A stretch of 64,000 nt of DNA, taken from positions 1 through 64,000 of the forward strand of contig JBEKDF010000014.1 in assembly GCA_050014495.1 (NCBI GenBank), in the 5' to 3' direction. Below the pieces are notes generated by a model that worked only from the letters and a program-made list of their open reading frames with translations, was not told the DNA's origin and did not search any database. Made by a program: the position numbers and the translations under genes. How positions within the stretch are numbered: the first letter of the stretch is position 1; each line of letters begins with the position of its first letter. The stretch comes from Candidatus Bathyarchaeia archaeon (GTDB lineage Archaea; Thermoproteota; Bathyarchaeia; TCS64). Below, piece after piece: positions 2,316-51,319 of this stretch.

Positions 2316-2891
2316 TCAAAGAAATGTCTCAGGTTCCTTCCGATCTGGGAAAGTATCATGAAGCCACTTCGCCTCCTTGACGAAGAATGGGTGTGTCATC
2401 ACCCTTGCGCCTGTTGGACAGTTTTTGATGCATGCGTAGCATCTTATACAGGCCTGCTTCTGCGTCTCGACTGTGGAGCCGATTGTTATGGCGGCGTTTG
2501 GGCAGACCTCAGCGCATTTGCCACACTTTGTACAGGTTTCCTCTTTCGTGATTGGGGCAGGTGGCTCGGTACCGGGTTTGGCTGCGCGGGATATTCGGAA
2601 TTCGTCTCTGTATGGGCGGTTACCGTTGACGGCTATCGAAGGGAGGTCCTCTTTGTTCCTAGCAGTTAATAGCTTCTCCCTGATTTTCGAGCCGAATTCC
2701 CGGGCTTTTTTAAGGTCGGAGCCATCTGGGCGACCTGCGGCTATGGGGACTTCTGGGGAGCTGAATGAGTGTTCAGCGATGAAGGCGCCGCCCGCGATGG
2801 GCTTGAATCCAAGCTCTGAGATTAGGTCGGTCAGCTCGATTAGGGCGTCTTCGTATGCCCTATTACCGTAATACAACCAGGGTGACTGCGG
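2316..2891 (-). pseudogene. EFR1-type flavodoxin/ferredoxin, 5'-truncated and frameshifted
   Basis: YGNRAYEDAL, AEHSFS, GRPD and two CxxCxxCxxxCP motifs. The upstream PAVTLVV lies in another frame (one extra T), and the gene is cut at the GC palindrome 2891-2902. Confidence 0.8.
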
Positions 2892-2901
2892 GCGCGCGCG
2901 C

Positions 2902-3542
2902 CTGTGTGATGGCTCCGGCGAACGAGAACGAGAAGAGACACGCCTCTACGCTGGGGGAGAGGACCAGGGTCGTCCTCCGCAGGGCGGGGGCGGGGCTGAG
3001 GAGGTTGATCGGCGACAGCCAGTACAGCAGTGCTAGGGTTAGGAGCCTCGTCGAGGAGTCGGTGATACCCTACACCGCGAATCAGCGCGGCGACGGTCTG
3101 AGGGTGGATAGGTGGTTTAGGACGCATGGTCCACCTGGGCTGGTGTCGGAGTATAGGAAGCGTCCCATGGTGGAGGCGCTCTTCGCTTTCTTGAGGACCC
3201 AGTTCGGCTTGAATGTGGTTAGGGTGAGGGGTTTGTGGGTGTCTCCGTCTACTCTCTGCTGAGTATGTTGTGCTGTGTGTTGAATAGGGAGGCGGCGGAG
3301 AACATGGGTCGGCCGGAGAAGGCGATGTCGCCGTCGTTCTTTAACACGTGAAGGTTCGCAGATTCGTGGGGTGCGGGGGGTTTGTTAGTGGGTGTTGGGC
3401 TTGTGTGTGTCGTTTTTCAGTCGTTTTTGCTGGTTGTGTGGTTTGTCATCGGGGTTTTACTTGTGTGGTGTTTTCGCTGGGGTTGTTTGTTGGGGTTTTG
3501 TTGGTGATTGTTGTTCTATGTATTTAATTTAGGGACGAGCTA
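2902..3542 (+). mobile_element. IS remnant: C-terminal half of a DDE transposase (IS4/IS5 superfamily), frameshifted, with G/T-rich 3' tail and right end
   Basis: PANENE, LIGDSQYSS (second catalytic Asp) and YRKRPMVEALFAFLR (YREK-like). The reading continues in another frame as VSVYSLLSMLCC...FFNT* ending at 3351. Putative end ...AATTTAGGGACGAGCTA at ~3542. Confidence 0.8.
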
Positions 3543-4113
3543 GCGCGCGCTCGCTTAATGGATATAATGGCAATCTAGGGCATATTATAAACCCCTCACC
3601 TTCTCGTAGAAGCCTCCCCCTCGATTCATGAGATCAAGCGAATTTACCAAAACCTAGAAGAAACCACACACTTCGACGATTTTAAACGCTTCATAGAGAC
3701 CAACACGGAGCTGAAAGACGTCAAGTACCTGAATCATGGTCTCCCAGGCCCTTCACGTGTCACTTACCGTTCATGATCAGGCTCAGTTACTGATGTTGAG
3801 CCTAAGCAGGTTGCTCCGCGGGTTTATGATCCTTCTAGCCAATAAGCTCTATTATTAGCTGTAAACAGAAATGTGGGTTTAAAACCATTTTACACCAATA
3901 ACGGGACAAGCCAGCGCGCGGAGATTAAGAAAAAGCCAGAGGACATAATAGACAGAAACGAAACTGACTACAAAGTAAAATTCGAGACGAGCTATTTTCT
4001 AAGCAAGGATTTCAAAGAGCTCTTTGGCAAAAGTTGAAAAAGGATACGCGCGCGGGCAGCGTGGCAGTCTGAAGGACTTCAGTATCTGTGGCCAGCGGAA
4101 ATACATTTTCGGC

Positions 4114-4392
4114 CTAGTCCGTGCGCGCTTCTTCTTCCTCTCGTTCTGTTAACCATTTTCTAAACCAGATATCAGTCTCTTTAGTAAGGATAACGTGGCT
4201 TATTTTGTGTCGCTTGCCATCAACCCCACGATGATATTCTATTAAGCCTCGTTCCTCAAGGCTTTTCAGACTATGTAAGTATGATTTTCTGAAAGTTGGT
4301 GTCAGAGAGTCCTCTTTATACTCTTTAGCTACCTCTTTTTTTAAGTCTTCCAGATATACAGTTTGTGTGGTTGGAGGATATCGAAACATCAT
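4114..4392 (-). CDS. Small winged-helix DNA-binding protein (possibly relic)
   Basis: SLKSLEERGLIEY...VILT wHTH pattern. The frame stays open upstream (NLSHLEKIILDNI) to a TAG at ~4482. Confidence 0.5.
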   Translation of the reverse strand: MMFRYPPTTQTVYLEDLKKEVAKEYKEDSLTPTFRKSYLHSLKSLEERGLIEYHRGVDGKRHKISHVILTKETDIWFRKWLTEREEEEARTD

Positions 4393-4650
4393 TCTGGCTA
4401 TATTATCCAGAATTATCTTCTCGAGATGACTCAGATTTGGCTGAAAACGGTTATCATCTATACGAACGTTATCCGTTTCCTAACCACCTAAGAAAACACC
4501 TGAGGTGGGGCTATTAATACTTGGTTAATAACCAGAGCTTAGAGCTACTCAACTAGTAAAAATTTATCAAGAAATATTTGAAAATAATTCAAAGGTTATC
4601 ATCTAGTACGGTGATATCCTTGGCATTGGGCGCAAGGGAGGAGAGAGTTC

Positions 4651-4917
4651 ATGGCAAAGGTTTGGATAGAATTAACTGAGAAGGAGAAAACTGAAGTGAA
4701 CAGGGAAATGTGTGAAACCAGCCAGAAGAATATGGTAGTCTATTATAGTGCAGAGATTAAGGCGGCATTATTAGGAAAATCACTCCCCAAACACATCTCT
4801 AAGACTCTCTTTGGTAATGGAATAATGGTTAGGTCTGGGTCTGGTGGTAGACAAGGGCTGCGGTTCAAGATCGATCAAAATGTATTTAAGAAATACAGAG
4901 GTTTAATTGAAAAATGA
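4651..4917 (+). CDS. Small basic hypothetical protein, divergent from the wHTH gene
   Basis: ATG preceded by GGGAGGAGAG; 88 aa; AT-rich divergent intergenic region. Confidence 0.5.
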   Translation: MAKVWIELTEKEKTEVNREMCETSQKNMVVYYSAEIKAALLGKSLPKHISKTLFGNGIMVRSGSGGRQGLRFKIDQNVFKKYRGLIEK

Positions 4918-5549
4918 GTTATTTAGCATATTTTTTCCCTTGAGGATCAGGATCGAGACCAAATAGTTTCTAACTAACCTATCTCAGCGCGTCAGACCCG
5001 CGTAGTCGTGGGAAGGAAGGTGACTAACTATGCTATTATTCAAATGTTGCATTTTGAATTTGTTTTTAATCTTCAGAGAGTATGTCGGAGCTGATTTGCG
5101 TTCAGGTGAATGAGGAATTATCGCTTGAACGCTGCGCGCGCATTCTGCTCTATAAAAACACGCCATACTTGGACTCTGACAAGAGTCGTATCACTTCAGA
5201 TCCTCCATTACAATCGCCCTCTTCTTGCCTTAAGCAATGGACACTAACACTATTGCACGAGAACTTCCTAAACTCCTCGACTAACTTTGCCCCCGCAGGT
5301 GAGAGCTTCGGTATTACGCCATCTGGCTTGTCAACTATTTTCACGGGTAGGACTTTGGACTTGGTCTTGACTAGGTGTGGAGTAGTTCCTTCTTGATTAC
5401 TACCTTCGGGGACACTTTCTTGGAAGTAGCACACGCAAATCTGTCTTTAAAATCGATCGCGCGCGCTCACGAAAAAACAGTTAACTATTCTTCTTAATTA
5501 GGCTATAAAATCTTATTAAAGCCACATTATTTATTCAGATAAGTTCAAC

Positions 5550-7826
5550 ATGAGAATATTACGCGCTCGCAATTTTTTCGTTCCAACAATATTTGTGATC
5601 TTCATCTTCCTCTTTACACAAATCCCGGACTGTAAATGTGCGCAACCTCAAGTTTCCTATACTCTGAGCTACTCCGTAAATGGGGGAGGGAACAGATACT
5701 CCCCGCCCACAGTAACCTACACATCAAATGGCGTACAGCATATTCAGATACTTGGTTCACAGGTAACCACCTATCGCCTCGACGTGAACACACAATGGAG
5801 CATCACAAACCCACTTTCAGGCTCACTGCCATACGAGAGATGGCAAACGAACCAGAACACAGCGGGTACAGCTAATGCCAACCAAACTATAGCATTAGTC
5901 TATTACCATCAAGTCACAGTGCAGTTTGGATACAACATCCTCAAAGGAGGCTCCGGATTCTCACCTCCATACGTATCCTATACAAGGTTTGGGTCAGCAA
6001 TGGCAAACAAGACGGTGACTATCGTTTGGGTGGACTACGGGTCAGCCTACTCCTACGTTAATCCACTAGCGGGGTCAAAACTGGGTGAGAGATGGATCAC
6101 CGCTAAACCCACTGGCACTGTAACCTCCTCGACCCTGATCACCCCAGACTATTATCACCAATACTACATAGTCTTCGACTACGGCATCAGCGGAGGCGGC
6201 AATCCCACTGCCCCCTCGGTAAAATACATTGCTTTGGGACTTGACCAGGACCCATTGCAGGCCAACCCTAGCCAGTCAACCTGGGCAGACGCCCAGTCAA
6301 CCTACACATACTCGCCCAATCCCCTAACTAGCTCTGGTACGAATGAGAGGTGGCAGGCCTCAACCACACCCTCCGGAACAGTCTCATCCTCAACAACCAT
6401 AAGACCCGTCTACTATCATCAGCTACTCCTGACGCTATCATACAATATATTAGGAGGCGGTTCGCCAAGTCAACCATCATTCAGGGCTCCAGCATTTGGC
6501 TCCAACTCAAAGCAGGCTCTCACAACATCGCCGACCAACTATTGGTTTGATAGTGGCGCCTCGTGGACCGAGGCGGGCACGCTCGATGGATCGAGCCTCA
6601 CCGAGCGCTGGAGCACCGGGCAACCTATAACCGGGGTAATTACCATCACGAAGACCCTATCATTTAACTACTACCACCAATACGCTGTAACCCTAAATTA
6701 CAGGGTCAGCGGGGGCACTGGATTCACTCAGCCAACAGTTAACATAATCAGCTTTGGTATAGCGACTTCGACTAACTCTACCTCCAATCTCTGGCTAGAC
6801 AGCGGCTCCAGTTACAATTTTCAAAACCCACTGATCGGTTCAAACGATTCAGAGAGGTGGTATGCAGCCACCTCAACCGGAAACATCCAGGCAACGGGAA
6901 CAATTGCTAAGCTCTACTACCATCAATTCAGCGTCATCTTCAGTTTCACTACACTGTACGGCGGCTCACCTAATTCACCATCTATCAAATACGTTTCCCT
7001 CGGATCATCATCTACGCAAGAAGTGACATCCGCCGATTCATCAACTTGGGCTGACGCAAACACGACTTACACGTATCCGCAGATACTTCTAGGAGGCTCA
7101 GATTCTGAAAGATGGCTGATCACTCCCTCAGTCAACGGTAAAATAACGAGCTCCATTAAGGTGTCTCCAACTTACCTGCATCAATACTATGTGAAGATAG
7201 AACCAAGTCTAACGATAGCCGGATCCGCGTCACAACCCAGCGACTGGCATAACTCGACTTCCCAAATATCAATATACCCAACGGCTGCAGATGGCTGGCG
7301 TTTCGAGGGTTGGGCCGGCAGCGGGGAAGGGTCCTACACGGGTCCTTTGCTAAATGCCACGTTCATTGTCTCGGCCCCAATTACGGAGAAGATGATATTT
7401 TACCCCGGCTTGAAAATTAATGCAAATGGCTGGGGCTACATCGCCTACACCCTTAATTCCAGCAACGCCACAGTAAACGCTGGGAACCTCACAACAGTCT
7501 ATGTACCAGTCGGGACAACTCTAGGACTAAGCGAGCATCCTAATTCCTTCCTCTATTCATTCATCAACTGGACTGGGGAAGTGAACAGCACATCCAACTT
7601 CATCATATTAACAATCAACAAGCCATTAAACGAACAGGCGAACTTCGGGTATAACTACCTACTCATCGGACTGATCGTAGGAATCGAAGCTGCCATCGTA
7701 ATAATAGCCTATTTTGCATCGGGTGGACGCTCGCATAACATCATAAAGCTCATCGCGAAGGCAAAAGCTGTGATGAAAACCAAACTGAACCGTAACGATA
7801 CACGTGTGGTCGAGTCAAACCAATAA
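5550..7826 (+). CDS. Cell-surface protein with six ~85-aa beta-rich repeats, two further repeat domains and a C-terminal TM anchor
   Basis: Signal peptide; repeats Y.I.GGG..P...W.D.GS.Y...NPL.GS..ERW...YYHQ; WRFEGWAG and FINWTG motifs; TM segment YLLIGLIVGIEAAIVIIAYF followed by a basic tail. Confidence 0.85.
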   Translation: MRILRARNFFVPTIFVIFIFLFTQIPDCKCAQPQVSYTLSYSVNGGGNRYSPPTVTYTSNGVQHIQILGSQVTTYRLDVNTQWSITNPLSGSLPYERWQTNQNTAGTANANQTIALVYYHQVTVQFGYNILKGGSGFSPPYVSYTRFGSAMANKTVTIVWVDYGSAYSYVNPLAGSKLGERWITAKPTGTVTSSTLITPDYYHQYYIVFDYGISGGGNPTAPSVKYIALGLDQDPLQANPSQSTWADAQSTYTYSPNPLTSSGTNERWQASTTPSGTVSSSTTIRPVYYHQLLLTLSYNILGGGSPSQPSFRAPAFGSNSKQALTTSPTNYWFDSGASWTEAGTLDGSSLTERWSTGQPITGVITITKTLSFNYYHQYAVTLNYRVSGGTGFTQPTVNIISFGIATSTNSTSNLWLDSGSSYNFQNPLIGSNDSERWYAATSTGNIQATGTIAKLYYHQFSVIFSFTTLYGGSPNSPSIKYVSLGSSSTQEVTSADSSTWADANTTYTYPQILLGGSDSERWLITPSVNGKITSSIKVSPTYLHQYYVKIEPSLTIAGSASQPSDWHNSTSQISIYPTAADGWRFEGWAGSGEGSYTGPLLNATFIVSAPITEKMIFYPGLKINANGWGYIAYTLNSSNATVNAGNLTTVYVPVGTTLGLSEHPNSFLYSFINWTGEVNSTSNFIILTINKPLNEQANFGYNYLLIGLIVGIEAAIVIIAYFASGGRSHNIIKLIAKAKAVMKTKLNRNDTRVVESNQ

Positions 7827-8591
7827 CTAATTTTTCCCAAGCAGAACATCTGGACTCAAGACGGCAATCTCTGAGTAGAGACTCTTAGTCGCGTCCACAA
7901 ACGCGGAGCCAGAGGTGGCTTCCCAGGTCAACTTCTTTGCAGCGACTTTCCCCAGCAGCTCAAGTGGCTTAGAAGGGTCAGCCCTTCTCAGCATCGCCTC
8001 CTGGACAGATGCGACACCGAATATCATCGCGTACACTCTCTGCATGTTTACTTCGCTAATAATTGGCTTAAGCAACAGGAGATTTGACTCCATCTCAGAG
8101 TAGGGTCCAATCAGGGACTGCGAGAGCATCCCCCTGAATTGGGTCACCGGATCCTCTCCTTCGCCAACCCTTTCCAACTTGCGCATAATCGCCTCACGTG
8201 GGTTAACACTCAGCTCCCTGAGATCCTCCATCGCCTTCGCGCGTTCCAAGAGGAAGTTGATTACGGAGGTGTCTACAGTTTTGACTATTTTCTCCCTTCT
8301 CTCACGTTCTAGACTGTAAGGTTTGTTTACGATATCAGTTATTTGGTCATAGGTTGCCTTGTCGATGATATCGAATGAAAGGTCGTTAATCCTTAATTTG
8401 AGCCCATCTACAGAGATCTTTGTGGAGTCACCGTAAGTAGTATGCCCAACAGGGATCAACTCGGAGCTTCTCAGGGTCTTTTTCAGCTTAGACACGCCTA
8501 TAGTCTTCTCTTCCTCGACTATCCTGATTTCACCGGCTTCGTAGTATTCTCCCCTGAACCAGATATTCCAAACCTTCGTCGAGTAAACCAC
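7827..8591 (-). CDS. Hypothetical protein (beta-rich, possibly PH-like N-domain plus helical C-domain); last gene of the tubulin-like operon
   Basis: 254-aa ORF abutting the upstream gene (8592/8591). Confidence 0.75.
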   Translation of the reverse strand: MVYSTKVWNIWFRGEYYEAGEIRIVEEEKTIGVSKLKKTLRSSELIPVGHTTYGDSTKISVDGLKLRINDLSFDIIDKATYDQITDIVNKPYSLERERREKIVKTVDTSVINFLLERAKAMEDLRELSVNPREAIMRKLERVGEGEDPVTQFRGMLSQSLIGPYSEMESNLLLLKPIISEVNMQRVYAMIFGVASVQEAMLRRADPSKPLELLGKVAAKKLTWEATSGSAFVDATKSLYSEIAVLSPDVLLGKN

Positions 8592-9635
8592 CTAATTCAC
8601 CCCCAAGCTCAACGACGGTATCCTCCTCGCTATCGATCTATACCCGGCCTCGATTTTCTCCAAGATAGGGTCCTCGCTGAGTCCATAGAAAATGTATAGG
8701 TCGCAGAAGTTGTATCGGGAGGATTTCTCACGTAAAATAACCTCGGAGTTTAGGAGATCCTTGAAGCCCAAGCAATAGTTCTTGAAGGTATCCTCTATCC
8801 CTAGGCGAAGCTCCCTTGGCGATAGCCCAAGAAGGTGGATGCTCTGGTAGCCTCCCTCGACGCCTTCGATGGAGTTCATGAAGGCGTTAATTTTGAATAA
8901 AGTCTCCATGTTCCTATAGACCTGATCCGAGGCGGAGAGGAGGGTAGAGATGGAGTGATTCATTATTCCGAGTTTCTTGTCACCCTCGATAAAGTGGCTC
9001 AGAGTTTGGATATTGGATGCTAGGTTTTTGACGACTTCCTCAAACGCAGCATCACCAGTGATCAACCCCTGGTCCTCGTCGAAGTAGGCGAGGCTTTTGA
9101 CATATTTTTCCTCAACAAGGACTAACGACCACCCCTTTTCATGCGCTTTTTTCAGGGCAATGTAGCACGTGTTTTTAACCAGTGGGGTTGAGGAATCATC
9201 CGCAGTTATAGCCAGCATTGTTTCGTTTCCCTCCAGCATGGAACTGTTTAGGGTGGCTAAAGATAGTGGACTGTTAGTGTTCACTACAATCATTTTATAT
9301 TTTGAGATATTGTAGCAGACTCTCCTCAACCACCCGTCGATTTGATTCGAGCACCTTTTTGAGTAGTCGAGCCATGTCCCTCCGTCTATCTGCTTCAGGG
9401 TAAGTGATTTTGTTGCCTCAGCGTCTTCGCTGCCAATCACAATCTTTGATACAAATGCATCCTTTACTTCAGCGCAATCGAGGCCTACGAACAGTACAAT
9501 AAGGTCCTCAAACCTCACCTCCGTCTCCGGGAGGTCGACTAGTTCCCTAACGAGTTGATCGTAGGGAACAGGCGAATTGCACTCTGGGCAATTCAGATCC
9601 CAGACGGTTGCATGGCAGTTCTGGCAGCTAGGCAT
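8592..9635 (-). CDS. Zn-ribbon protein with a probable degenerate tubulin/CetZ-like fold
   Basis: CQNC...CPEC at the N-terminus; alpha/beta pattern; C-terminal LYIFYGLSEDPILEKI resembles the CetZ C-terminal strand; overlaps the upstream gene by 8 nt. Confidence 0.7.
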   Translation of the reverse strand: MPSCQNCHATVWDLNCPECNSPVPYDQLVRELVDLPETEVRFEDLIVLFVGLDCAEVKDAFVSKIVIGSEDAEATKSLTLKQIDGGTWLDYSKRCSNQIDGWLRRVCYNISKYKMIVVNTNSPLSLATLNSSMLEGNETMLAITADDSSTPLVKNTCYIALKKAHEKGWSLVLVEEKYVKSLAYFDEDQGLITGDAAFEEVVKNLASNIQTLSHFIEGDKKLGIMNHSISTLLSASDQVYRNMETLFKINAFMNSIEGVEGGYQSIHLLGLSPRELRLGIEDTFKNYCLGFKDLLNSEVILREKSSRYNFCDLYIFYGLSEDPILEKIEAGYRSIARRIPSLSLGVN

Positions 9636-11886: not shown

Positions 11887-11891
11887 CCCAC

Positions 11892-14504: not shown

Positions 14505-14510
14505 GTCAAA

Positions 14511-15467: not shown

Positions 15468-15758
15468 TCAGAATGGATGAGATTTAAAACTAATGTATTA
15501 TTGGGAAGTGCATTTTCACGCAACTTGCTTAATCGTGGAAATTTAGCAGATAATCGCGCGCGCGAGTCGGGTATTCCGATAATTATATTTGCGCGTGATA
15601 GTCCAAACGCCAGTTTGCCACTACCTCCCCCCACTACTTTTAACATAAATTAAATAATCTTAATTCTCAGAACATACTTACAGAATAATTCGAGTATACA
15701 AATTGCATGACATAAAGCCTGAATTGACTTATTCAGTTTTCTTTCCGTCCCGCACGAC

Positions 15759-17763: not shown

Positions 17764-17978
17764 GCATTAGAGCAGATGAAGAATGGTGATAACGTTTCCG
17801 TGCGCATATCAACGCTGGAACGAAACTTGGACGCGCGCTTCCAATCTTAGCGGTTATGAAGCTCTTCGCGGTTGAGTAGGCTCTTTTCATCGCGTGCATG
17901 TTTTTTGATAAATTATTTATCCGTTTTCGCGCGCTTACCCCCCGAACAGGCTAGTACTGCAGTAGCTAACCACACTCA

Positions 17979-20492: not shown

Positions 20493-20499
20493 ACCGCAC

Positions 20500-21858: not shown

Positions 21859-22069
21859 AGATTAGATCTATCTATGAGCGCGCGCAGATTCATGAGGCTT
21901 GATGGCTTCCTCGTTGTTGATTAATCGAGACATGCTAGGGAGCTTCGCTATGAGGACTACATCGAAAAGTCGTTTAAATCCTTCGAAGGAACTGAAAAAA
22001 CCCTGGGTGTCATCCTCTAGTATCGAAGAAATGCTTCAAAAAGCTCGTGGGGAACCTTCCCATGCTCCA

Positions 22070-23880: not shown

Positions 23881-23881
23881 C

Positions 23882-25472: not shown

Positions 25473-25505
25473 CGAGATAGTGGTCGTACGGGGTCGTGCG
25501 CGCGC

Positions 25506-37286: not shown

Positions 37287-37410
37287 CTATGCACCGGCTT
37301 TGGGTTTGTGTTATGAGCCCACCCATCATTATTAAGTGAAATGAGCAATGCAAGTTGCACATTAGTTAACCATAAGGTTTTATCGCTCCTCGGATGGCGA
37401 ATTCCCTGAT

Positions 37411-38496: not shown

Positions 38497-38502
38497 GGAG
38501 GG

Positions 38503-42101: not shown

Positions 42102-42125
42102 TCAATCGTGTTGAACCGATCTCTA

Positions 42126-42590
42126 TCACTGCTTCTTCATCTCACTAAGTTTTGATAGTATCACTCGAACGCTCTCCAGAGATTTGCATAGGGTGTTACG
42201 TTCATCCTCGGAGAGAGTTGAAAGCTTCATTCTAGCGGACTCTCTCGCCTCCATCCATTGATCCTGCATATACATCTTACCCTGAGGCGTGAGTCCGACC
42301 TCAATAATTCTGCGATCTTTCTGGTCTTGCCTCCTTTCGACCCACCCTTCAGCAATCAACCGGTCGATGACAGAGGTCATATTCGGCTTTGAAATACCGA
42401 GCCAGATAGATATTCGTGACATAGGCAGAGGGCCGTGTCTCATCAGGATCCCCATGACCTTGAAGTCGGAGCTAAACGGATTGTGACTTTGATGGTCAAC
42501 ACTGAGTATGGTGCGATGGAAGAGTGGTACGATACTGTAGATGTCGTCGAGCATCCGATCCATTCTCTCCATAGACGAACCTTCACCCAT
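42126..42590 (-). CDS. MarR-family regulator
   Basis: SKPNMTSVIDRL...DRR...LTPQG. Confidence 0.9.
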   Translation of the reverse strand: MGEGSSMERMDRMLDDIYSIVPLFHRTILSVDHQSHNPFSSDFKVMGILMRHGPLPMSRISIWLGISKPNMTSVIDRLIAEGWVERRQDQKDRRIIEVGLTPQGKMYMQDQWMEARESARMKLSTLSEDERNTLCKSLESVRVILSKLSEMKKQ

Positions 42591-42607
42591 TTTTTGTTCA
42601 CCGATTA

Positions 42608-42630
42608 AACAGTTATAATATATAACTGTT
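42608..42630. promoter_or_regulatory. Perfect inverted repeat, probable MarR operator
   Basis: AACAGTTATA-ATA-TATAACTGTT, 17 nt upstream of the marR start in the divergent promoter. Confidence 0.75.
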
Positions 42631-42705
42631 ATATAAACGTACGTTTCTTCAGGGACGGTGATATTTAAAGCTAGAGAATACCAATCAGAAACAGGGAGAA
42701 ACTAA

Positions 42706-43254
42706 ATGAAGATTCTAGCCATACAGTCGAGTTCTAACGTGGATGGTCTAACAGCTAAGACCGCGAAGGCTATAATAAGTGGCGCAGAGGCCGAGGGTGC
42801 CACAGTTGAGCTAATCAACCTAAACGAGCTAATCATTAAGCCCTGCTTAGCATGCGACGGAGGATGGGGGCAGTGTCGCAGAGATGGTAGATGCATACAG
42901 GATGATGAATTCCAGGCGCTCCGAGACAAGATCCATGCTGCAGACGCGACGATCTTCGCCACCCCTGTGTACTGGGGTGACCTCAGCGAATCAGCAAAAA
43001 TTTTCCTCGACAGACTAAGACGTTGCGAGGTGAACGGCGAGTTCAAGAATCTAAATGGCAAGATAGCTGTGGGTATAGCCTCGGCTGGGGGCACTGGGAA
43101 TGGTTGTGTCAAGTGCCTTCTCCATCTCGAGGACTACATCAGACGAGTTGGCTTCACGGTATTTGATCTAATTACAATAACTCAGGTATCAAGGGAGCAT
43201 AAACTCGAGATGCTAGAGAAGGCGGGTCATAGACTAGCGAAGATGAAGCCATGA
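42706..43254 (+). CDS. Iron-sulfur flavoprotein / flavodoxin family
   Basis: CLAC...C...C and TPVYWG motifs. Confidence 0.85.
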   Translation: MKILAIQSSSNVDGLTAKTAKAIISGAEAEGATVELINLNELIIKPCLACDGGWGQCRRDGRCIQDDEFQALRDKIHAADATIFATPVYWGDLSESAKIFLDRLRRCEVNGEFKNLNGKIAVGIASAGGTGNGCVKCLLHLEDYIRRVGFTVFDLITITQVSREHKLEMLEKAGHRLAKMKP

Positions 43255-43294
43255 GATAATTAAACGTATTATTTCACGTCAAACATTATTGAGG

Positions 43295-44257
43295 TCAGGT
43301 AGTGTATTTTTTCTCGCTCAGATACCTGTCTCTACTGTCGGGTAGAACCGTGACGACACGTTTACCATTACCCAGCTCCTCAGCGACCTTTAATGAGTGG
43401 TAGACATTGGCGCCAGCGGAGATACCACAGAATAGACCCTCCTCCCTAACTAAACGGTCCGAAGTCTTTATCGCATCCTCGTTTGTGATCTTTACGACCT
43501 CATCAATTAGACCACTTTCCATCATTTCCTCTATAATACCACCAGCGATTTCCTTACTGATGCCTGGTGGCGATGTGAGGCCGCTGCTGATCGCATACTT
43601 AGCGGATGCTGGTTCCAGTCCGATGATTTTACATTTTGGGAGCTTGGTCTTCAGAGCTTTGGCAACGCCGTAGAGGGTGCCACCTACACCAATGCTGGCG
43701 ACGAAGGCGTCCACTTTGCCATTCATCTGCTCTAAGATCTCGTTGCCGGTGACTATGTGCGCACTCCAGTTCGCTGGGTTGCTAAATTGTCTAGCCCACC
43801 AGATCTTTGGGTTGCTACTCTCGAGTTCGAGGCACTTCTTTCTGGGGATAAACTCTGCTTCGGCACCTGCGACACTTCCCCTTGAGTCCAAGCCCTCGAT
43901 CTTCATCTCGTGGACTATGGCACCATAGCTCTCCATAATTTTGATTCTCTCCCGAGTCATGCCCTCGGGCATGTATATCTCTACATTGTAACCTAGGCAT
44001 GCCCCAACGAAGCTGAATGCTGTACCAGTGTTACCTGTTGACGCTTCGACTATCGTGTAGCCAGGTTTGAGTTTGCCCTCCGCCTCTGCGGAACGGATCA
44101 TCTCTAAGGCGATTCGATCCTTGTAACTGCCACTCGGATTGAGATATTCGAGTTTTGTGTAGATCTCAGCGCTATTCTTCGGAACAACCCTTTGTAGCTT
44201 CACCATCGGGGTGTTCCCAATCACGTCTAGTATGCTGTTTACTGCCTTAGGAGCCAT
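43295..44257 (-). CDS. Cysteine synthase family PLP enzyme
   Basis: IGNTPMV, NPSGSYKDR, STGNTG and GISAGAN motifs; start moved to MAPKAV. Confidence 0.9.
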   Translation of the reverse strand: MAPKAVNSILDVIGNTPMVKLQRVVPKNSAEIYTKLEYLNPSGSYKDRIALEMIRSAEAEGKLKPGYTIVEASTGNTGTAFSFVGACLGYNVEIYMPEGMTRERIKIMESYGAIVHEMKIEGLDSRGSVAGAEAEFIPRKKCLELESSNPKIWWARQFSNPANWSAHIVTGNEILEQMNGKVDAFVASIGVGGTLYGVAKALKTKLPKCKIIGLEPASAKYAISSGLTSPPGISKEIAGGIIEEMMESGLIDEVVKITNEDAIKTSDRLVREEGLFCGISAGANVYHSLKVAEELGNGKRVVTVLPDSRDRYLSEKKYTT

Positions 44258-44467
44258 AGGAATAAGTGAATGGCAAGGGGAGAAAATAGTTTCCCTTATC
44301 GAGTATTTTGTTATAGATAATATTATAAAGAGCCTAAATCTAATTAATACATGACCAGTTAGGCACATTATGATAAATCGGTCAAGACCAGTATAGGTTA
44401 TATTGAGTTCATCTCACTCTTAAGGAAGAACACGCAAATTGTTTTCCGCAATTCTCTTACATCTTTT

Positions 44468-44962
44468 TTGATTTTCACTTATCCCGAACTTCAAGAGTTG
44501 AAAAAAGACAAGAAGTTGATTATCCACACCGACTCAGTTGAAAAGGCACTCCAAGAGGCGAGTCTCAGATATCTAGGAGAAGGCAGGGACTACCGCTCCG
44601 ACCTAATCAAATTCCGAGATCACCTCAAGGCTCAGAAAAAGGCACCCAAGTCTATAAGTATCGCCATCTCAGGCGCCACAGGGTTCCTTGGCAGGAACAA
44701 GTTTAGACTCGACAAGTACGACAAACAGGACCCTTCAAGGACCTCGGCAAGACTATCACCAAGGATAAGGTACCGACAGCCGAACAGCTAGCCAAGTTAG
44801 TGAGCTTCATGCCGATTCACTTGAAGACGCTTGTTTACCTACTCAGCTCGTCTTGCATGCGGGTCGATGAAGCTCTACAGCTTTGTGTAGAGGACCTATC
44901 ACTCGACATGCATCCAGCGAGGGCTGAAGTCCTTTGGAATGGATACACAAGAACGACGAAGT
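44468..44962 (+). pseudogene. Tyrosine recombinase/integrase N-terminal remnant
   Basis: DLIKF..HLK...APKSI core-binding region; frameshift; then DKVPTAEQL...LLSSSCMRVDEALQL..EDL (box I). Catalytic C-terminal half absent. Confidence 0.75.
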
Positions 44963-44971
44963 GCGCGCGCG

Positions 44972-45392
44972 ACGAAGGAGTACCTTAGAGACTTCTACGA
45001 AGTCCTATTCTTAGACTGGGTCGACGTCGACGACTTCAGGAAACGCTACGACCACAAAGTCAACAAGGAGTCCTTCGTTGAACGGTTCTCTATCTGGCAG
45101 ACATATGACAATATTGGCTACCTTGTCCGTGAGGGGCTAGTGGACCCGAACATCGTCTTTGATGCGGCTGGGTTTCATTGTGTAATGATCTGGGGTCTGT
45201 ACAAACCGATCATAAATATCATTTCGAGGCCGGAGTTGGGGGACTCAAGCCTGGGAGAACTTTGAGTACATTGCAAATGTGATGTGGAGGATCGCTAAGG
45301 AAAGGGGTGCGTTTTCGCCTGGTGGCAAAGGAGGCACATTTTACGATGCTTACTGGGAGACCTTCGAACCCAAGTCTTCTTCTCCATCATAG
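44972..45392 (+). pseudogene. 5'-truncated, frameshifted conserved hypothetical (DUF4760-like)
   Basis: DW.D.DDF..RY...YDNIGYLVREGLVD...W...KPII, then WENFEYIA...* in another frame. Confidence 0.55.
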
Positions 45393-45468
45393 CTGTATCC
45401 TCGCCTCAATTTGGGAGCTACTCGGATTCTATCCATGCTAGCGCGCGCAGCACCAGCTTTAATTTAAA

Positions 45469-45852
45469 TTACGGATTTAGTAAACTTCCGCCAAATATGG
45501 CAGAGCCATCCCACCGAGTTGTCCACGATATTACGGTTACACTCTGATATACGGGGGGAGTGCCAGTGCCATAAGACCCTGAAACGATTAAGTAGAAAGA
45601 AGCGCCATCATAGCTTCTCTGGTAATATATCGTCGAATTGGCGGCACCTCTCTTGAGTTGAGTGAGTGTCTGCAATGTTGATGAGACGCTAACTGTTGGA
45701 TTCCCTAAGGTGGTTAAATCCTTTGCAGACAAGTCGGCTATGATTTTATCGCACCCCTGAACGTTGCCGCGATACTGAAGATAAGCAATAGAAACTATTG
45801 ATACTGTAATGATTGCAATCAAAGCAATAACGGTAATCCCCTTTGTGTTCAT
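45469..45852 (-). CDS. Hypothetical protein with N-terminal TM/signal
   Basis: 127-aa ORF with a hydrophobic N-terminus, flanked by GCGCGCGC runs. Confidence 0.6.
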   Translation of the reverse strand: MNTKGITVIALIAIITVSIVSIAYLQYRGNVQGCDKIIADLSAKDLTTLGNPTVSVSSTLQTLTQLKRGAANSTIYYQRSYDGASFYLIVSGSYGTGTPPVYQSVTVISWTTRWDGSAIFGGSLLNP

Positions 45853-46068
45853 CTCGTCATTCTCACAGCCCTGTTACCAGTTTTAGCTATTGTTAACGCC
45901 AGCTCCTTCTACAAAAGGGTTCGTATTAACAGCGCGCGCTTCTGGGGGGGGAGCTAGTGCTGTTTGTCACGCCAGTATTTTATCCCCAGAACCTTTACTA
46001 GACGTATATGACCTCATTCGCTAGACCCGAAATTTAATTATTGATAATAAAATTTGAGATAATTTCCC

Positions 46069-46551
46069 CTACTTGTTCAATCTATTGACCAGTTTACCGA
46101 CGCGTTCACCAAGTTTCCTACACGCCTCGAGAGAGGCGTCATTAGGAGAGCCAACAGAGGAGGCACCGTAGTGACTACCAGAAGAGGATCCCTGGATCAC
46201 CATCCCATGCACTAGAAGCATCTCGTTTATGGCGATGATCGTTGACTCTGCCCCCGTATGGGTACCACCCGCACTGGCAAATGCACCACCGACCATGCCG
46301 TCAAGCTTACCGTGATATTTGACAGACTCATCGATGAATTTCTTGATTTTACTACTTGGTAGGCCATAATAGACAGGTGAACCTAGGATGAGTCCCTGAT
46401 ATTGTGGAATCTCATCAACGCTTGCCTCATCGATGTGCTTAATGACGGGAGTGACACCCGACTTCTTTACACCATCTTCGACGGCATGAGCCATTTTCTC
46501 GGTGTTACCTGTACTTGAATCGTAGATTATTAGGACCTTCAAGGGTTTCAC
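46069..46551 (-). CDS. Flavodoxin/WrbA-like protein
   Basis: YDSSTGNTEKMA and GSPVYYG motifs. Confidence 0.9.
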   Translation of the reverse strand: MKPLKVLIIYDSSTGNTEKMAHAVEDGVKKSGVTPVIKHIDEASVDEIPQYQGLILGSPVYYGLPSSKIKKFIDESVKYHGKLDGMVGGAFASAGGTHTGAESTIIAINEMLLVHGMVIQGSSSGSHYGASSVGSPNDASLEACRKLGERVGKLVNRLNK

Positions 46552-47094
46552 CTAAATGAGCTTTTTATCGGCGTCAGGGGTTGCAAATACGCCCTTGACT
46601 TCACCCATGTATAGCATGTGGAAGTCCTTCGTCTTGTACATCTCAGCCTCTATTTTTGTTTCAAGCTGACCAGGTCTCATGTCGGTCTTGAAGATGGTAG
46701 CACACTCGATGTGTACTGGGCATTCCTCGATGTAAGGCGATTCGATCACTATCCCCTTCTTGGCGGTGAGCTTGCACTCCTTGAATTTGTCGTAGGTCCT
46801 ACCAGATTTAGTTCCACAGAAATCAAGAGTCGTTTCCATTCCCTTGGCGGGCAAGCAGACAGCCCAGCTTTTTGCTTCTTCCATGAGCTTGAAGGTGTGT
46901 CTGCTGTGACGAACAGCGACGATGCATACAGGCTTTGCCCACATGGTGCCCAGGAGACCCCAGCCAATAGTCATCGCGTTTGGCTTTCTATCATCTCCTT
47001 CAGTGACAAGAAGGATCCCATTCTTCCTAAGTAGGTCATTCATCTCGTGAACATACTTGAACGTGTCAACCTTGTCTTTTGGCATCTGAACCAT
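46552..47094 (-). CDS. Flavin reductase family (flavoredoxin-like)
   Basis: NAMTIGWG, CGTKSGR..DK and ECPVHIEC motifs. Confidence 0.9.
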   Translation of the reverse strand: MVQMPKDKVDTFKYVHEMNDLLRKNGILLVTEGDDRKPNAMTIGWGLLGTMWAKPVCIVAVRHSRHTFKLMEEAKSWAVCLPAKGMETTLDFCGTKSGRTYDKFKECKLTAKKGIVIESPYIEECPVHIECATIFKTDMRPGQLETKIEAEMYKTKDFHMLYMGEVKGVFATPDADKKLI

Positions 47095-47238
47095 GTAAGA
47101 TATGAGATTGGATCTCGTTATAAGCGTTAGATTTCCGGATTATTCGAATTATTTCCTTAATTGTCATTTCCTTAACTGGCTCACTAAGGAATGGTTGTCA
47201 TTACTCAAGTGGAAAATATCTAGAGAAAAGTAAAAAAG

Positions 47239-47649
47239 TTAAATGATGTAGCCGCTGTCAGGTCGTTCGAAGTTCCTAACGAGCTCCAAGTTAAGCTCTG
47301 GCTCTAAATCATCAAAGTCTTCGTCAGTGAGGTCGACCCAAGGTCCAGTCAATGAAGCCTCGACCACTTGGCTACCCTTACCAAAGTTCTCGAGACACAC
47401 CTTGTAAGTAAGTCGCCTGACCTGGGACTCATCCTCAAAGCCTAGGCTATGTAGGTACTCATGTAGGAGAATCGTGTAAACGTGGCATCGCTCATTCATC
47501 CCCGTCTTTCCCTTGATGAGTCTCCTGTTGAGGACAATCTCATTTGTCCCCATCGGGTGAAAGGCCCCCACGTTCATCGGGAGATTCCCCAGAAGCAGCA
47601 TGAGTCCAACCCTATGTAACCCAAGGGTCTTCTTTACGCCTCGCTTCAC
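47239..47649 (-). CDS. Small zincin-like putative metalloprotease
   Basis: ILLHEYLHSLG motif; the frame is open upstream to ~47718, so the start is uncertain. Confidence 0.7.
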   Translation of the reverse strand: MKRGVKKTLGLHRVGLMLLLGNLPMNVGAFHPMGTNEIVLNRRLIKGKTGMNERCHVYTILLHEYLHSLGFEDESQVRRLTYKVCLENFGKGSQVVEASLTGPWVDLTDEDFDDLEPELNLELVRNFERPDSGYII

Positions 47650-47718
47650 TAAGGCGAAGATATCCCCGTAATCTCTACAGGCCTCTAGGTCAGACGCGAG
47701 CGTTCTGAGTTGCTCCCC

Positions 47719-47940
47719 CTAGACTGCCTCTACGGCCTTAACGCCGGGGACCTTCTTTTTTAGGTACTGCTCGACACCCCATTTCACTGTCATCTGACTC
47801 ATGGGGCAGCCTGCGCAGTGGCCCTTGAGCTTCACCTTGACGACGCCGTCCTTGACGTCGACGAGCTCGACGTCGCCCCCATCCATTTGGAGCTGTGGTC
47901 GAACGTCTTCAAGCGCCCTCTGTATTTCCGCCTTTTCCAA
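47719..47940 (-). CDS. NifU/NfuA C-terminal domain protein
   Basis: VRPQLQMDGGDV and GHCAGCP motifs. Confidence 0.92.
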   Translation of the reverse strand: MEKAEIQRALEDVRPQLQMDGGDVELVDVKDGVVKVKLKGHCAGCPMSQMTVKWGVEQYLKKKVPGVKAVEAV

Positions 47941-48104
47941 AATCGCACCTTCAGAATTGTGGACACGAGGAGCCTATTAAAGGTTGAGAGGCAGGTCAAC
48001 TATAGCGAGGTAATCTGGGCGCTGTATGTCATTAATTTGACACGGGAAAGGTTAAAAAGGGAAGCAGCATCCATGATTGCGTTCAAGGTGTTGAAGAGTG
48101 ATGG

Positions 48105-49019
48105 GTGACCATCAAACAGTTTAGTATTTACGCTCCCGCTTCAATTGCTAACCTTGGACCTGGCTTCGACGTTTTCGGTGTAGCCCTCGATGGACTAGGT
48201 GACAAACTTAAAGTAAAGAGGGTATCCGAACCAGGTGTCCGAATTCAGGTAAAAGGTTTTGAGGCGGATCAGATTCCGGTGAAGGCGCAACTAAACAGCG
48301 CTGGAGCCGTCATGCAGGCAGCGCTGAGTAGGTTTACAGAGCCTATCGGTGTCGAGATTGAGATTGAGAAGGGTGTTCCACCAGGTAAGGGTATGGGATC
48401 ATCAGGAGCCTCAGCGGCCGCAGCCGCTGTGGCTGCTGTGAATCTATTGGACTTAGTCATCCCGCAGAGGGAACTCGTGGAACTTGCAGCCCAAGGAGAG
48501 GCTGCAGTGGCTGGTAGCGCCCATGCCGATAATGTCTCAGCGAGCCTCTTCGGGGGGTTCATCCTAGTTAGCGACGGATACGACGTAATGAGGATGGAGA
48601 TACCCGATGTTGGTTTCGTAGTCGTTGTCCCTGACGTAAAGTACAAGAATAAGACGAAGATGGCGAGGGGGCTTCTCCCAGAGATGGTGAACCTCAAGGA
48701 CGCTGTAAGGAACATAGGCTATGCCTCGAGGATGGCGGCTGCCGTCGCGATGAAGGACCCGATACTATTCGGGAAGAGCATATGCGACTGCGTGATCGAG
48801 CCTCACAGGGCTGGAATGATACCTAACTTCCACCTTGTGAAGCTAGCTGCCTTGCAGGCGGGTGCTTATGGGTGCTCCATAAGTGGCGGAGGTCCGAGCG
48901 TCTTCGCCGTGGGCGAGAAGCCAGTCGAACTTGGCAAGGCTATGGTTGAGGCATTCGGTGACACTCCCGCTGAAGCCTACATCACCAAACCCAGTAACTT
49001 GGGAACGAGGGTCCTGTGA
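48105..49019 (+). CDS. thrB: Homoserine kinase
   Basis: PASIANLGPGFD, GMGSSGAS, HADN and ISGGGPS motifs. Confidence 0.93.
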   Translation: MTIKQFSIYAPASIANLGPGFDVFGVALDGLGDKLKVKRVSEPGVRIQVKGFEADQIPVKAQLNSAGAVMQAALSRFTEPIGVEIEIEKGVPPGKGMGSSGASAAAAAVAAVNLLDLVIPQRELVELAAQGEAAVAGSAHADNVSASLFGGFILVSDGYDVMRMEIPDVGFVVVVPDVKYKNKTKMARGLLPEMVNLKDAVRNIGYASRMAAAVAMKDPILFGKSICDCVIEPHRAGMIPNFHLVKLAALQAGAYGCSISGGGPSVFAVGEKPVELGKAMVEAFGDTPAEAYITKPSNLGTRVL

Positions 49020-50287
49020 TGCCCTCCAAGTTTAGGTGCATACGCTGTTCACGTGAATACGAGCCCGGCAGCATCTTCAGGTGCGAATGTGGCGGCCTCT
49101 TAGAGGTCATCCACGAGCCAATAAAGTGGGATAGGCATATCGTAGATTCTCGCCTCTGCCCCATGGGAGTACCATACAGCAGCGGGGTTTGGAGATATAA
49201 GGAACTAATCCATCCGGGTCTCTATGCGGGGTTCATAGTAACTCGCCCTGAGGGAAATACAAACATCTACCACCGCGGAACAGTCTCTGATTATGTCGGC
49301 GTCGACAAACTCACCATGAAACACGAGGGAGAGAACCCCACTGGAAGCTTCAAGGATAGGGGAATAACAGTCGCGGTCTCCGAGGCTCTTCGTCAGAATG
49401 CGAAGGCAGTTGCCTGCGCATCAACGGGGAATACAAGTGCATCGATGGCAGCTTATGCGGCTCAGGCCAATCTTCAGGGGATCGTGTTCATTCCGGAGGG
49501 AGAAATAGCATATGCTAAGCTGAGTCAGGCCTTAGCTTATGGCTCCAAGGTGGTTCAGGTACCTGGCAGCTTCGATGATGCAATGCGTATAGTCCAAGAG
49601 GCAAGCAGAGAGCTTGGCCTCTACCTCCTCAACTCAATTAACCCGTGGCGGGTCGAAGGGCAGAAGACGATCATCCTCGAGCTACTCCACCAGCGTGGTT
49701 GGGAACCACCAGACTGGATCGTGGTCCCCGCGGGAAATCTCGGTAACACATCTGCTTTCGGAAAGGCCCTCGCCGAACTGGTGGAGCTCGGCTGGATTGA
49801 CAGCGTGCCACGTATTGCCTCAATCCAAGCTGAGGGAGCCGCGCCCTTCTACAAGCTTTGGAAGTATGGGGGCTCGGAGTTGGAGGCGCTTCACCCAGAG
49901 ACTGTGGCAACCGCGATAAAGATCGGAAACCCAGTCAGCTGGGAAAAGGCTCTCAGAGTCATTAGGGAGACGGATGGCGTCGTCGAGGTGGTTACGGATA
50001 CTGAGATCATGGAGGCGAAGGCCATCGTCGACGCGAGCGGTGTGGGTTGCGAACCCGCTTCTGCTGCATCCATTGCAGGGGCAAAAAAACTCACTGCAGC
50101 TGGAATCATAAGACCTGACGACGATGTGGTCTGCGTACTGACTGGCAACCTCTTGAAAGACCCGGATACCACTGTGAAGTATCACACAAACAAGCTCAAA
50201 GGGATTCAACCTGCTAGGTCAAATGCACCTACACAACTTGATGCTAAGTCGATATCCGCCTCGCTTAGGAGAATCCTATCGAAATAA
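49016..50287 (+). CDS. thrC: Threonine synthase
   Basis: NPTGSFKDRG, CASTGNTS, NSINP and GNLGN motifs. Confidence 0.93.
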   Translation: MMPSKFRCIRCSREYEPGSIFRCECGGLLEVIHEPIKWDRHIVDSRLCPMGVPYSSGVWRYKELIHPGLYAGFIVTRPEGNTNIYHRGTVSDYVGVDKLTMKHEGENPTGSFKDRGITVAVSEALRQNAKAVACASTGNTSASMAAYAAQANLQGIVFIPEGEIAYAKLSQALAYGSKVVQVPGSFDDAMRIVQEASRELGLYLLNSINPWRVEGQKTIILELLHQRGWEPPDWIVVPAGNLGNTSAFGKALAELVELGWIDSVPRIASIQAEGAAPFYKLWKYGGSELEALHPETVATAIKIGNPVSWEKALRVIRETDGVVEVVTDTEIMEAKAIVDASGVGCEPASAASIAGAKKLTAAGIIRPDDDVVCVLTGNLLKDPDTTVKYHTNKLKGIQPARSNAPTQLDAKSISASLRRILSK

Positions 50288-50299
50288 AGAGGGCCATTA

Positions 50300-50768
50300 G
50301 TGATGGATATCATCGTATTGAAGTTAGGAGGCTCCATTCTTCGAGGCGGGGAGGATCTCAGGAAAGTTGCTGACGTTGTTGAGTTCGAGATAAACTCGGG
50401 GAGGCTTCCAGTCTGCATTGTCTCCGCGATGAAGGGAGTCACTGACAAAATAATCAATGCCCTAAGCCAAGTCAGGACTGTTGGGTTCGATCCAAGGGTA
50501 TTTGTCGAAGGTCTCATGCTGGAACACCTATCATACCTCCCTGAGGGGATCGACCAGGAGCCATTTAGGAGGGAATTCGAGAAGTTAGAGCATGTTCTCT
50601 CCTATGTAAGATCGTCGGGCGAATTGACTGACGGGCGCTTTGGCTGAGCATGGGGTGAATATTGAACAAGCTACCCAACCTAACAGTGAGAATATAATCA
50701 GGTTCAGTGTAAGCGATGACGACGTACCTCTCGCTGTCGCAGCAGTTTACAAGGAGTTCTTCAGGTGA
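50300..50768 (+). pseudogene. lysC: Aspartate kinase with a large internal deletion
   Basis: VLKLGGS...VSAMKGVTD N-terminus joined at GGGCGC (50633-50638) to the out-of-frame ACT tail LAEHGVNIEQATQPNSENIIRFSVSDDDVPLAVAAVYKEFFR*. Confidence 0.85.
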
Positions 50769-51319
50769 ATGAAATGAGGAAACAGAAAGCTATAGTGATT
50801 GGAGCAACTGGTGCTGCTGGACAGAATATAGTAGAGTTCCTCACGAACCATCCTTGGTTCGAGTTAGCAGGCCTCGCTGCATCGAGTAAATCGGCATCCT
50901 TTGCATACTCTAAGGCAATAGAGGGGGCAATATTCTTCGAGCGCGCGCGCATCGGCGCAACCTGCACTCGCGTCCAAGTTCAGACTGTCCACACCGAAGC
51001 CGTCTATGTAGACACAAAGAAGCCCTGCAGCTTAGATGAGGCGAAGAACGCGATGCGAGAATATGTGAGTGAACCCCAAAAACTCAAACTTCCTTCTGCA
51101 CCCAAAAAACCCATAATCGTTTTCGATGGGCCTAAGATGCCTCAGCCGAAGCTCCATCGGCAGTATGGTGGTGATGTGACTCTGGTTGGGCGCCTAAGGA
51201 GGGATCCGGTCTTCAAGAATGGTCTAGCCTATATTGTAACTAGTGATAACCTCGACAAAGGAGCGGGCGGCGGAGCCGTACAGACCGCCGAGTATCTCAA
51301 GGCGAAGAGGTACTTCTAG
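50765..51319 (+). pseudogene. asd: Aspartate-semialdehyde dehydrogenase with an in-frame internal deletion
   Basis: GATGAAGQ...HPWFEL..LAAS joined at GCGCGCGCGC to IGATCTRV...HTEAV...LPSAP...GAGG. Only 184 aa, and the catalytic NPNC region is missing. Confidence 0.88.

Follow-up and report, generated by a model that had tools for sequence, protein, structure and literature searches.

The window, a stretch of 64,000 nucleotides from contig JBEKDF010000014.1 of a sediment archaeon of Candidatus Bathyarchaeia (assembly GCA_050014495.1, here G000), contains the left part of an IS5/IS1182-like insertion sequence, a ferredoxin-domain gene without its 5' part (labelled EFR1-like in an earlier sequence-only reading), two further IS remnants, a truncated cupin gene, an integrase-like fragment and an asd gene with an internal deletion (Table 1). 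Alternating CG runs (GCGCGCGC-type) lie between and within these features. All 15 run starts reported in that reading were verified, and its claim of an excess over chance holds: 12 runs are 8 nt or longer, compared with simulated means of 0.6-2.1 under Markov models of order 1 to 4 (30 simulations per order, largest simulated count 6). The three 7-mer runs taken alone are close to chance expectation.

Table 1. Positions of the CG runs and neighbouring features in the window.
Feature	Position	Strand	Remarks
IS5/IS1182-like element, left part	1..292	-	N-terminal transposase fragment 1-255; terminal repeat ends 292
GCGCGC flank immediately outside left IS end	293..298		
Ferredoxin-domain gene without 5' part, cut at run	2316..2891	-	Fer4 matches; homology stops 21 nt from run
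10-nt run, ferredoxin gene joined to transposase interior	2892..2901		
IS remnant carrying a 3' transposase fragment and the right terminal repeat	2902..3542	+	
8-nt run, IS end / truncated non-autonomous element	3543..3550		
Short non-autonomous element remnant, same IS clade	3551..3913		Terminal repeat ends 3913
7-nt run	3914..3920		Absent from paralogue of right-hand sequence
126-nt gene fragment, run on either side	3921..4046	+	Longer homologue on C51
8-nt run	4047..4054		Left-hand parent contributes 0 bases
8-nt run	5134..5141		Close strain: other, unseen letters between 5139 and 5142
9-nt intergenic run	5458..5466		No homologue extends to run
10-nt intergenic run	15555..15564		No homologue extends to run
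7-nt run within 3.4-kb segment absent from close strain	17832..17838		
7-nt run	17928..17934		C16 homology begins 3 nt right of run
8-nt run	21878..21885		No homologue at run
8-nt run, DNA just behind TetR gene joined to cupin gene interior	25498..25505		Pfam
9-nt run, integrase-like fragment joined to interior of unrelated gene	44963..44971		Contig of sequencing run X9 bridges
8-nt run within 1.77-kb insertion absent from close strain	45441..45448		
8-nt run, same 1.77-kb insertion as 45441	45932..45939		
Control: ~935-nt deletion in aspartokinase gene, without CG run	50626..50627		
asd with internal deletion	50765..51319	+	
10-nt run in asd	50941..50950		1 parental base at each end, 8 non-parental replacing 536

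Several runs had been placed at breakpoints, and at the ferredoxin/transposase, cupin, integrase-like and asd junctions homology does stop at or near the run. In total, 8 of the 15 runs (2892, 3543, 3914, 4047, 17928, 25498, 44963 and 50941) have a homology boundary no more than 7 nt away on one side or both, and the distances at the cupin junction are 1 and 2 nt. Intact transposase copies carry a different sequence onward from loose ends at 2906. For the runs at 5134, 5458, 15555, 17832, 21878, 45441 and 45932 our homology search returned no homologue reaching the run.

Extending the count to the whole source genome, 459 runs of at least 8 nt were found. By length these comprise 192 runs of 8 nt, 144 of 9 nt and 111 of 10 nt (expected at order 2: 33.5, 7.8 and 1.8), while only 12 are longer, which amounts to a sharp length cap at 10 nt. 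The other five alternations showed no comparable step at 8-10 nt, and CG-alternating 5- and 6-mers were fewer than expected. Counting by context, as had been proposed, revealed a strong dependence on gene conservation. Only 2 of the 459 runs lie inside the 742 genes conserved over their full length with genome G042, corresponding to 3.2 runs per Mb compared with 183 per Mb elsewhere, a 57-fold difference. The base preceding a run is biased, with T before G at 343 of 862 ends.

The asd gene is intact in a close strain (~97-98% identical), where 536 bases stand in place of 8 new bases in G000; the filler is also seen against orthologues. Both parents were available at four further junctions (C24:4356, C33:5405, C33:13896 and C33:31598), where 7-9 bases had been added, and the filler alternates without exception at all five two-sided junctions. 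Among 61 junction halves with an in-genome paralogue, the parent supplies 0-2 bases in 53 (0 in 22, 1 in 22 and 2 in 9), whereas 4 truly parental bases were seen in 2; the runs are therefore filler rather than microhomology. At 5134..5141, up to 6 of the 8 bases may be parental. A separate 51-nt transposase deletion with GC filler was found in sequencing runs X13 and X14. A run was lacking at 95 out of 126 pairs of alignment ends, and many of these are where other repeats end. Runs at deletion and fusion junctions consist of 7-9 non-parental alternating G/C bases that are mostly missing from the parents. This favours added, non-parental CG among the origins suggested by the sequence-only reading. 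Self-complementary microhomology and Z-DNA fragility are disfavoured because both need the run in the parents, where it is mostly absent (asd, paralogues, close strain). Hairpin opening, leaving P nucleotides, is not supported: complementarity about the junction was at permutation level at G000 positions 1-3 (125/125, 82/79, 70/72) and above it at G000 position 4 (91/73) and G042 position 1 (30/24).

Repeating the count in related genomes, we found the signature in at least four Bathyarchaeia families. G042 shows the same cap at 10 (counts of 41, 30, 7 and 1 compared with 10.6, 2.2, 0.5 and 0.1 expected), and tblastn detected neither the IS transposase nor a LigD polymerase in this genome. All five genomes of family f26 carry runs; the transposase was found in none of the five, and Ku in none of three. 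In the single-contig genome G121, 103 9-mers fit GC.....CG and consist of G and C only, and 78 of these alternate throughout.

The runs flank a 1.27-kb IS element, which has terminal inverted repeats, a DDE transposase with DUF772 (DUF772 + DDE_Tnp_1) and strict GCGCGC flanks. Its transposase scores under the NCBIfam cut-offs of all named families (IS1182, 91 bits vs 270; IS5_4, 65 vs 140). The runs might be target sites or leftover footprints of such an element, which would insert, delete neighbouring DNA and excise. In line with this idea, the outward flanks of 95 selected IS ends are nearly invariant over six bases (G100 C98 G99 C98 G98 C92), among the repeated elements only this clade has GC flanks (at identities as low as 33% and across several types of terminal repeat), about 11 IS flanks have a paralogue without the run, and the transposase is commoner in run-rich than in run-poor genomes of the family (18/25 vs 14/31; Mann-Whitney p 0.011, with kin not independent). 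The accessible part of a published report describes IS5/IS1182 inserting at a deletion breakpoint (10.1101/2024.06.02.596822). However, only 28 of the 459 runs adjoin a recognised IS end (94% do not), target sites would have to pre-exist while the run is absent from both parents at the five two-sided junctions, no transposase was detected in run-rich G013, G042, G044, G038, G015 or f26, and close transposases are present in run-poor G177, G080 and G062. In 8 of 11 elements whose flanks were both read by eye, assuming a 4-base duplication yields a target of 8-11 nt, the size of ordinary scars. A duplication of 4 bases is compatible with the data, whereas 6 is excluded by L013 and L024; neither a centred 4-base duplication nor independent tailing gives a clean fit to the modelled flank lengths. 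No clean empty site was found, and pairing flanks across contig ends gave no pair. The IS clade likely does not create the scars but inserts into existing ones, duplicating the 4 bases GCGC. The suggested IS footprints account for a small minority of runs, and an IS origin of the rest is unlikely.

A templated origin, in which a broken end primes via 1-2 bases on an existing GC run, copies it and rejoins, would let scars propagate themselves with an ordinary polymerase. The clustering of runs (231 of 452 have another within 1 kb), a small excess of 1-2 parental bases and the frequent AT directly before G-start runs (154/862 ends) are consistent with it, but donor flank should often come along, and it leaves the first runs and the cap at 10 unexplained; we regard it as quite unlikely. 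Junctions formed on a 1-2 base CG/GC overlap and later grown by replication slippage would explain why at least one base is common to the parent in 39 of 61 halves, as well as the 12 overlong runs. Against slippage stand the halves with no parental base, the total of only 1-2 parental bases at two-sided junctions, the depleted 5- and 6-mers and the restriction of the step to CG alternation among dinucleotides. Slippage is not expected to grow one unit to five under a hard cap, and this route appears improbable. A library or assembly chimera had been named as the alternative: G000 is a metagenome bin of 92 contigs, and junctions were checked on contigs, not raw reads. However, contigs of other sequencing runs bridge 50941 (X4, without differences in asd) as well as 44963 and 45441 (X9), six runs recur in further assemblies (possibly from one campaign), and the trait follows lineage across 161 genomes, single-contig assemblies included. 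An artefact is hardly credible.

Candidate writing enzymes were also surveyed. A complete polymerase-Ku-ligase/phosphoesterase operon with an AEP polymerase lies on contig C3 of G000, and run-rich members of the genus share LigD polymerase substitutions near the template-binding loops. Filler written by this primase-like polymerase is nevertheless very improbable, given that the substitutions follow phylogeny and that presence does not track runs: the polymerase occurs in 11/25 run-rich and 12/31 run-poor genomes of the family, was not found in g11, g13, g15 or g16 (including single-contig G033 and G042), and, among run-rich genomes outside the family, 1 of 5 has Ku. Further candidates were rejected. 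PolB2 with a RadA-like neighbour is full-length in f26 (5/5) but also in run-free g18, G022, G024 and G114, with at best a partial match in run-rich G142, G146, G157 and G161. A third PolB occurs only in g17 and g18, yet run-poor g19 lacks it as well, which argues against its loss as the cause. PolX is present in G000, G033 and weakly g18 but not in G042, and a second PriS-like gene on C20 has no second PriS match in G033, G042 or G044. Nucleotidyltransferases are present in all five genomes examined, with more in run-free ones. No RT, Thg1 or Y-family polymerase was found in the five genomes examined for each, no RNA holder appeared among the matches listed, and Rad50 operons were not located by motif scan. 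Subtracting half of the negative genome G050 from the gene content of G000 and G042 left 528 candidates, with no dedicated polymerase among the 232 scanned (135 with Pfam, 97 with NCBIfam; 296 left out). As negatives, G001 and G010 are of little use because of the low GC of their loci (33-36%). PriS is present, also in run-free genomes, and an alignment of 10 sequences gave no convincing diagnostic residue. Since no tested accessory gene tracks the trait, a core enzyme would be the likeliest writer. The primase PriSL is the first candidate, although this enzyme taken on its own is rather unlikely.

The runs are likely written by a putative host polymerase during end joining. We consider it reasonably probable that a host route of end joining adds (GC)n tails, which are self-complementary, with the IS likely targeting the resulting scars. 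After resection of a break, the polymerase would add alternating G and C to each 3' end, either without a template or by slipping and copying repeatedly along the partner tail. Since each (GC)n tail can pair with any other, tailed ends could then anneal, whichever two meet. At about 8-10 paired bases the joint may become stable enough for fill-in and ligation, which would explain the cap at 10. A stronger version seems less likely than not: in repairing double-strand breaks, the active site itself would dictate an alternating, self-complementary tail with a set number of bases. Such a universal sticky end, needing neither Ku nor homology, would drive gene loss and fusion in Bathyarchaeia and would have become the landing pad of one transposon clade.

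Bathyarchaeia are among the most abundant uncultured archaeal groups, and the runs bear on how Ku-less archaea join non-homologous ends. A fixed, countable scar makes a repair trait readable from genomes, each run recording a past deletion, fusion or capture. If it is true that an enzyme alone writes the self-complementary tail, DNA repair would include a sequence-specific kind of synthesis that is new, and the enzyme might be of use for joining arbitrary ends. Our literature search, mostly outside subscription papers, found no description of these runs. They are likely written by a previously undescribed break-repair route, which would leave every broken end with a sticky tip able to pair with that of any other.

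Cyanobacterial HIP1 is common in genes; such abundance in coding sequence was not found for the runs, which avoid conserved genes. Both are short GC-rich palindromes over-represented in a lineage, but HIP1, as described in the available parts of two papers, is a single fixed octamer tied to methyltransferases (PMC4390886, PMC5861425), whereas the runs are 8-10 nt long and lie at junctions. A crude motif scan for C5-methyltransferases gave no match in G000 or G042. Unlike the products of Ku/LigD NHEJ, the runs occur in genomes that yielded neither Ku nor the polymerase. Bases added by that pathway are short and of no fixed sequence. Deletion with added bases is shared with the pathway of Methanocella and mycobacteria, whose operon G000 also carries, as far as the available text goes (PMC7776575; structure 5dmu). 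Microhomology-mediated end joining in Haloferax is, in the same excerpts, likewise Ku-independent, deletion-forming and based on annealing of short sequences, but there the annealing sequence pre-exists in both parents (PMC7776575), which is mostly not so here. DRT3 shows that an active site can impose base alternation with no nucleic acid as template, although the accessible account concerns an antiphage reverse transcriptase whose product is long, free poly(GT/AC) (PMC13213688), and no RT was found in five genomes here. The nearest known chemistry is that of the core primase. According to the portions available, Sulfolobus PriSL bridges non-complementary ends in vitro by terminal transfer, annealing and extension, with G:C pairs being important, and its authors speculate on a role in Ku-independent end joining (PMC3333859). 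That enzyme prefers contiguous dC templates and rGTP, not alternation, and those portions describe neither an alternating product nor a genomic scar; the likeness lies in the shared transfer-anneal-extend chemistry (PMC3333859).

All 15 uninterrupted alternating G/C stretches (GC runs) listed by the sequence-only reading were found at their positions, and the excess it had estimated was borne out, with 12 runs reaching at least 8 nt where Markov simulations of order 1-4 gave means of 0.6 to 2.1. The window's contig C14 belongs to G000, a 3.1-Mb bin, and the relatives of its asd gene are Bathyarchaeota. Genome-wide, G000 carries 459 runs of at least 8 nt: 192 of 8 nt, 144 of 9 nt and 111 of 10 nt (order-2 expectation 33.5, 7.8 and 1.8, respectively) and 12 longer ones, while 5- and 6-nt runs lie under the order-2 expectation. 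Runs largely avoid conserved genes: two lie within the 742 genes conserved at full length with the run-rich genome G042 and 457 outside them, corresponding to 3.2 versus 183 per Mb. The commonest run start in G000 is T before G (343/862 ends). The runs given for G146 and G142 (family f17) are mostly preceded by A, a lineage-specific flank bias. Single changes within runs are twice as often transitions as they are transversions to A or T; either the ageing of scars or mistakes by the writing enzyme could account for this.

Part of the window interval 44500-54000 is present in 24 public sequencing runs. Contigs, rather than reads, were compared for four of these over 36000-55000 and for four over 1200-21199, with one in common. 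The library or assembly chimera raised as an alternative is contradicted by a contig of run X4, which crosses the asd junction with zero differences, and by one of run X9, which crosses the runs at 44963 and 45441. As for the proposed check in related genomes, the alternating 9-mer is found in 16 of the 17 other members of the genus, and each of 12 genomes outside the family has it 0-3 times. Sampling 161 genomes of the class gave no match in 71, and 13-78 matches in genomes within families f26, f17 and f27. In five of these genomes the alternating word makes up 23/94 to 78/103 of comparable GC-only 9-mers (uniform expectation 1/32). G042 (1.5 Mb, 76% complete) has 79 runs of at least 8 nt against 13 expected, with the same length cap as G000; half of G050 has zero runs of at least 7 nt against about 10 expected. 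GC runs are a real, lineage-patterned junction signature.

Whether the run pre-exists at the asd breakpoints could be judged from the strain in sequencing run X13, which is about 97-98% identical to G000 and carries asd in intact form. In the 10-nt run, a single base at either end is parental, and the 8 between them have taken the place of 536; orthologues at about 77% identity are consistent with this. Further, an in-genome paralogue extended up to the run at 85 junction sides (halves) next to runs of at least 8 nt, leaving 61 once 24 ends of the insertion sequence (IS) discussed below were excluded. The paralogue gives 0, 1 and 2 bases of the run in 22, 22 and 9 of these, and at least four in eight, which on reading by eye are three copies with the same run, two true 4-base overlaps and three ends of the IS or of an adjoining mini-element. 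At the four junctions of this set with both parents known, 7-9 bases were added. An additional 51-nt deletion with GC filler is present in X13 and X14 and absent from G000. Counting against filler, up to six bases of the 5134 run may be parental and the deletion at 50626 has no GC run. Moreover, a run of at least 6 is lacking at 95 of 126 pairs of alignment ends, but these pairs lack independence and many of them represent ends of other repeats. GC runs at junctions are mostly non-parental filler. G000 flanks are no more complementary at positions 1-3 than permuted ones, which argues against hairpin opening.

Coordinates of features in the window, elsewhere in G000 and in G042 (C, contig; L, locus)
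Location	Feature	Remarks
Window 7827-15467	Five-gene cluster round a tubulin-like (PF13809) protein, 870 residues	Four genes without Pfam match
Window 15623-19046	Segment of 3.4 kb with an amidohydrolase gene and two runs of 7 nt	X13 and X14 have 286 different bases instead
Window 44289-46063	1.77-kb insertion: integrase-like fragment, three GC runs	Missing in X13 strain; 6 letters match both sides
Window 50300-51319	Aspartokinase and asd internally deleted in G000 strain	Both longer in X13; threonine-pathway operon therefore looks broken
G000:C3:63439-67463 (L086:5440-9464)	NHEJ operon: AEP polymerase, Ku, ligase plus phosphoesterase domain, DUF72	Complete
G000:C20:26050-27366	Second PriS-like gene, 439 residues	Beside housekeeping PriS
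G000:C17:58707-58775; L021; L046	Mini-element of ~62 bases between IS end and GC flank	In G000, G012
G000:C75, C24, C50, C74, C72, others	15-base motif, 100 copies, inside longer repeat separating unrelated short genes	Looks like a cassette array
G042:C1:886284	8-nt run in hairpin loop of a tRNA intron (read by eye)	G000 orthologue: another loop, 4 bases

GC runs might instead be footprints of the IS5/IS1182-like element of G000, which has 1,266 bases and a 331-residue transposase (DUF772 plus DDE_Tnp_1) that stays under the cut-offs of all named families. An outward GCGCGC flank is nearly invariable at 95 selected ends of this IS and its short derivatives (18 of 113 pattern matches were left out, mostly chance matches, four with a mini-element adjoining the end), and other repeated elements have no such flanks. 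Read by eye, 11 elements with both flanks imply, if a 4-base duplication is assumed, a target run of 8-11 nt in eight, 14 in two and 7 in one; a model of the flank lengths agreed cleanly neither with a centred 4-base duplication nor with independent tailing, and a clean empty site was looked for and not found. However, a recognised IS end adjoins only 28 of 459 GC runs. The transposase occurs in 18/25 run-rich versus 14/31 run-poor genomes, yet it was not found in G013, G015, G038, G042 and G044, including by tblastn in G042, none of the five f26 genomes searched yielded it either, and run-poor G177, G080 and G062 hold close copies. Since bins built from short reads may miss copies of the IS, and the element itself can die out, these absences only weaken the footprint explanation. 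Given the close-strain asd allele and the run-rich genomes without a found IS or Ku, we favour repair over transposition. Both broken ends would be tailed with alternating G/C, anneal via the self-complementarity of (GC)n and be ligated once 8-10 base pairs had formed; the scars may then serve secondarily as IS target. One study reports that an IS5/IS1182 element had inserted at a deletion break (10.1101/2024.06.02.596822).

G000 encodes a full polymerase-Ku-ligase operon; G012 and G016 have it in split or interrupted form, and Ku occurs in 15/18 family genomes and 0/12 outside. As writer, the LigD-type polymerase was rejected (11/25 run-rich and 12/31 run-poor genomes), as was a requirement for Ku (one of five run-rich genomes from other families). 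None of PolB2, the third PolB, PolX, RT, Thg1 and Y-family polymerases fits the occurrence of the runs. In 71 genomes, the third family-B polymerase (763-779 residues) was detected solely in genera g17 and g18 of family f1. Gene-content subtraction gave no candidate among the 232 proteins scanned of 528. The alternating, length-capped filler is spread independently of the genes tested, and what remains common to run-rich genomes is the core set. In PMC3333859 the Sulfolobus primase is described as bridging ends that are not complementary, through terminal transfer, annealing and extension. PriSL is therefore the leading putative writer, although no convincing diagnostic residue was found in 10 PriS sequences.

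Additions by TdT-like enzymes and LigD are not known to be fixed in sequence. The junction signature resembles filler-adding end joining but, on the features compared, does not qualify as Ku/LigD joining, as microhomology joining or as an IS footprint. No published account of these runs was found in the literature searched, and if a sequence-dictating polymerase were shown, the phenomenon would be categorically new. Archaeal microhomology joining, as described in PMC7776575, depends on repeats already present, whereas the G000 filler is mostly non-parental. DRT3 provides a precedent for base alternation being enforced by a protein (PMC13213688).
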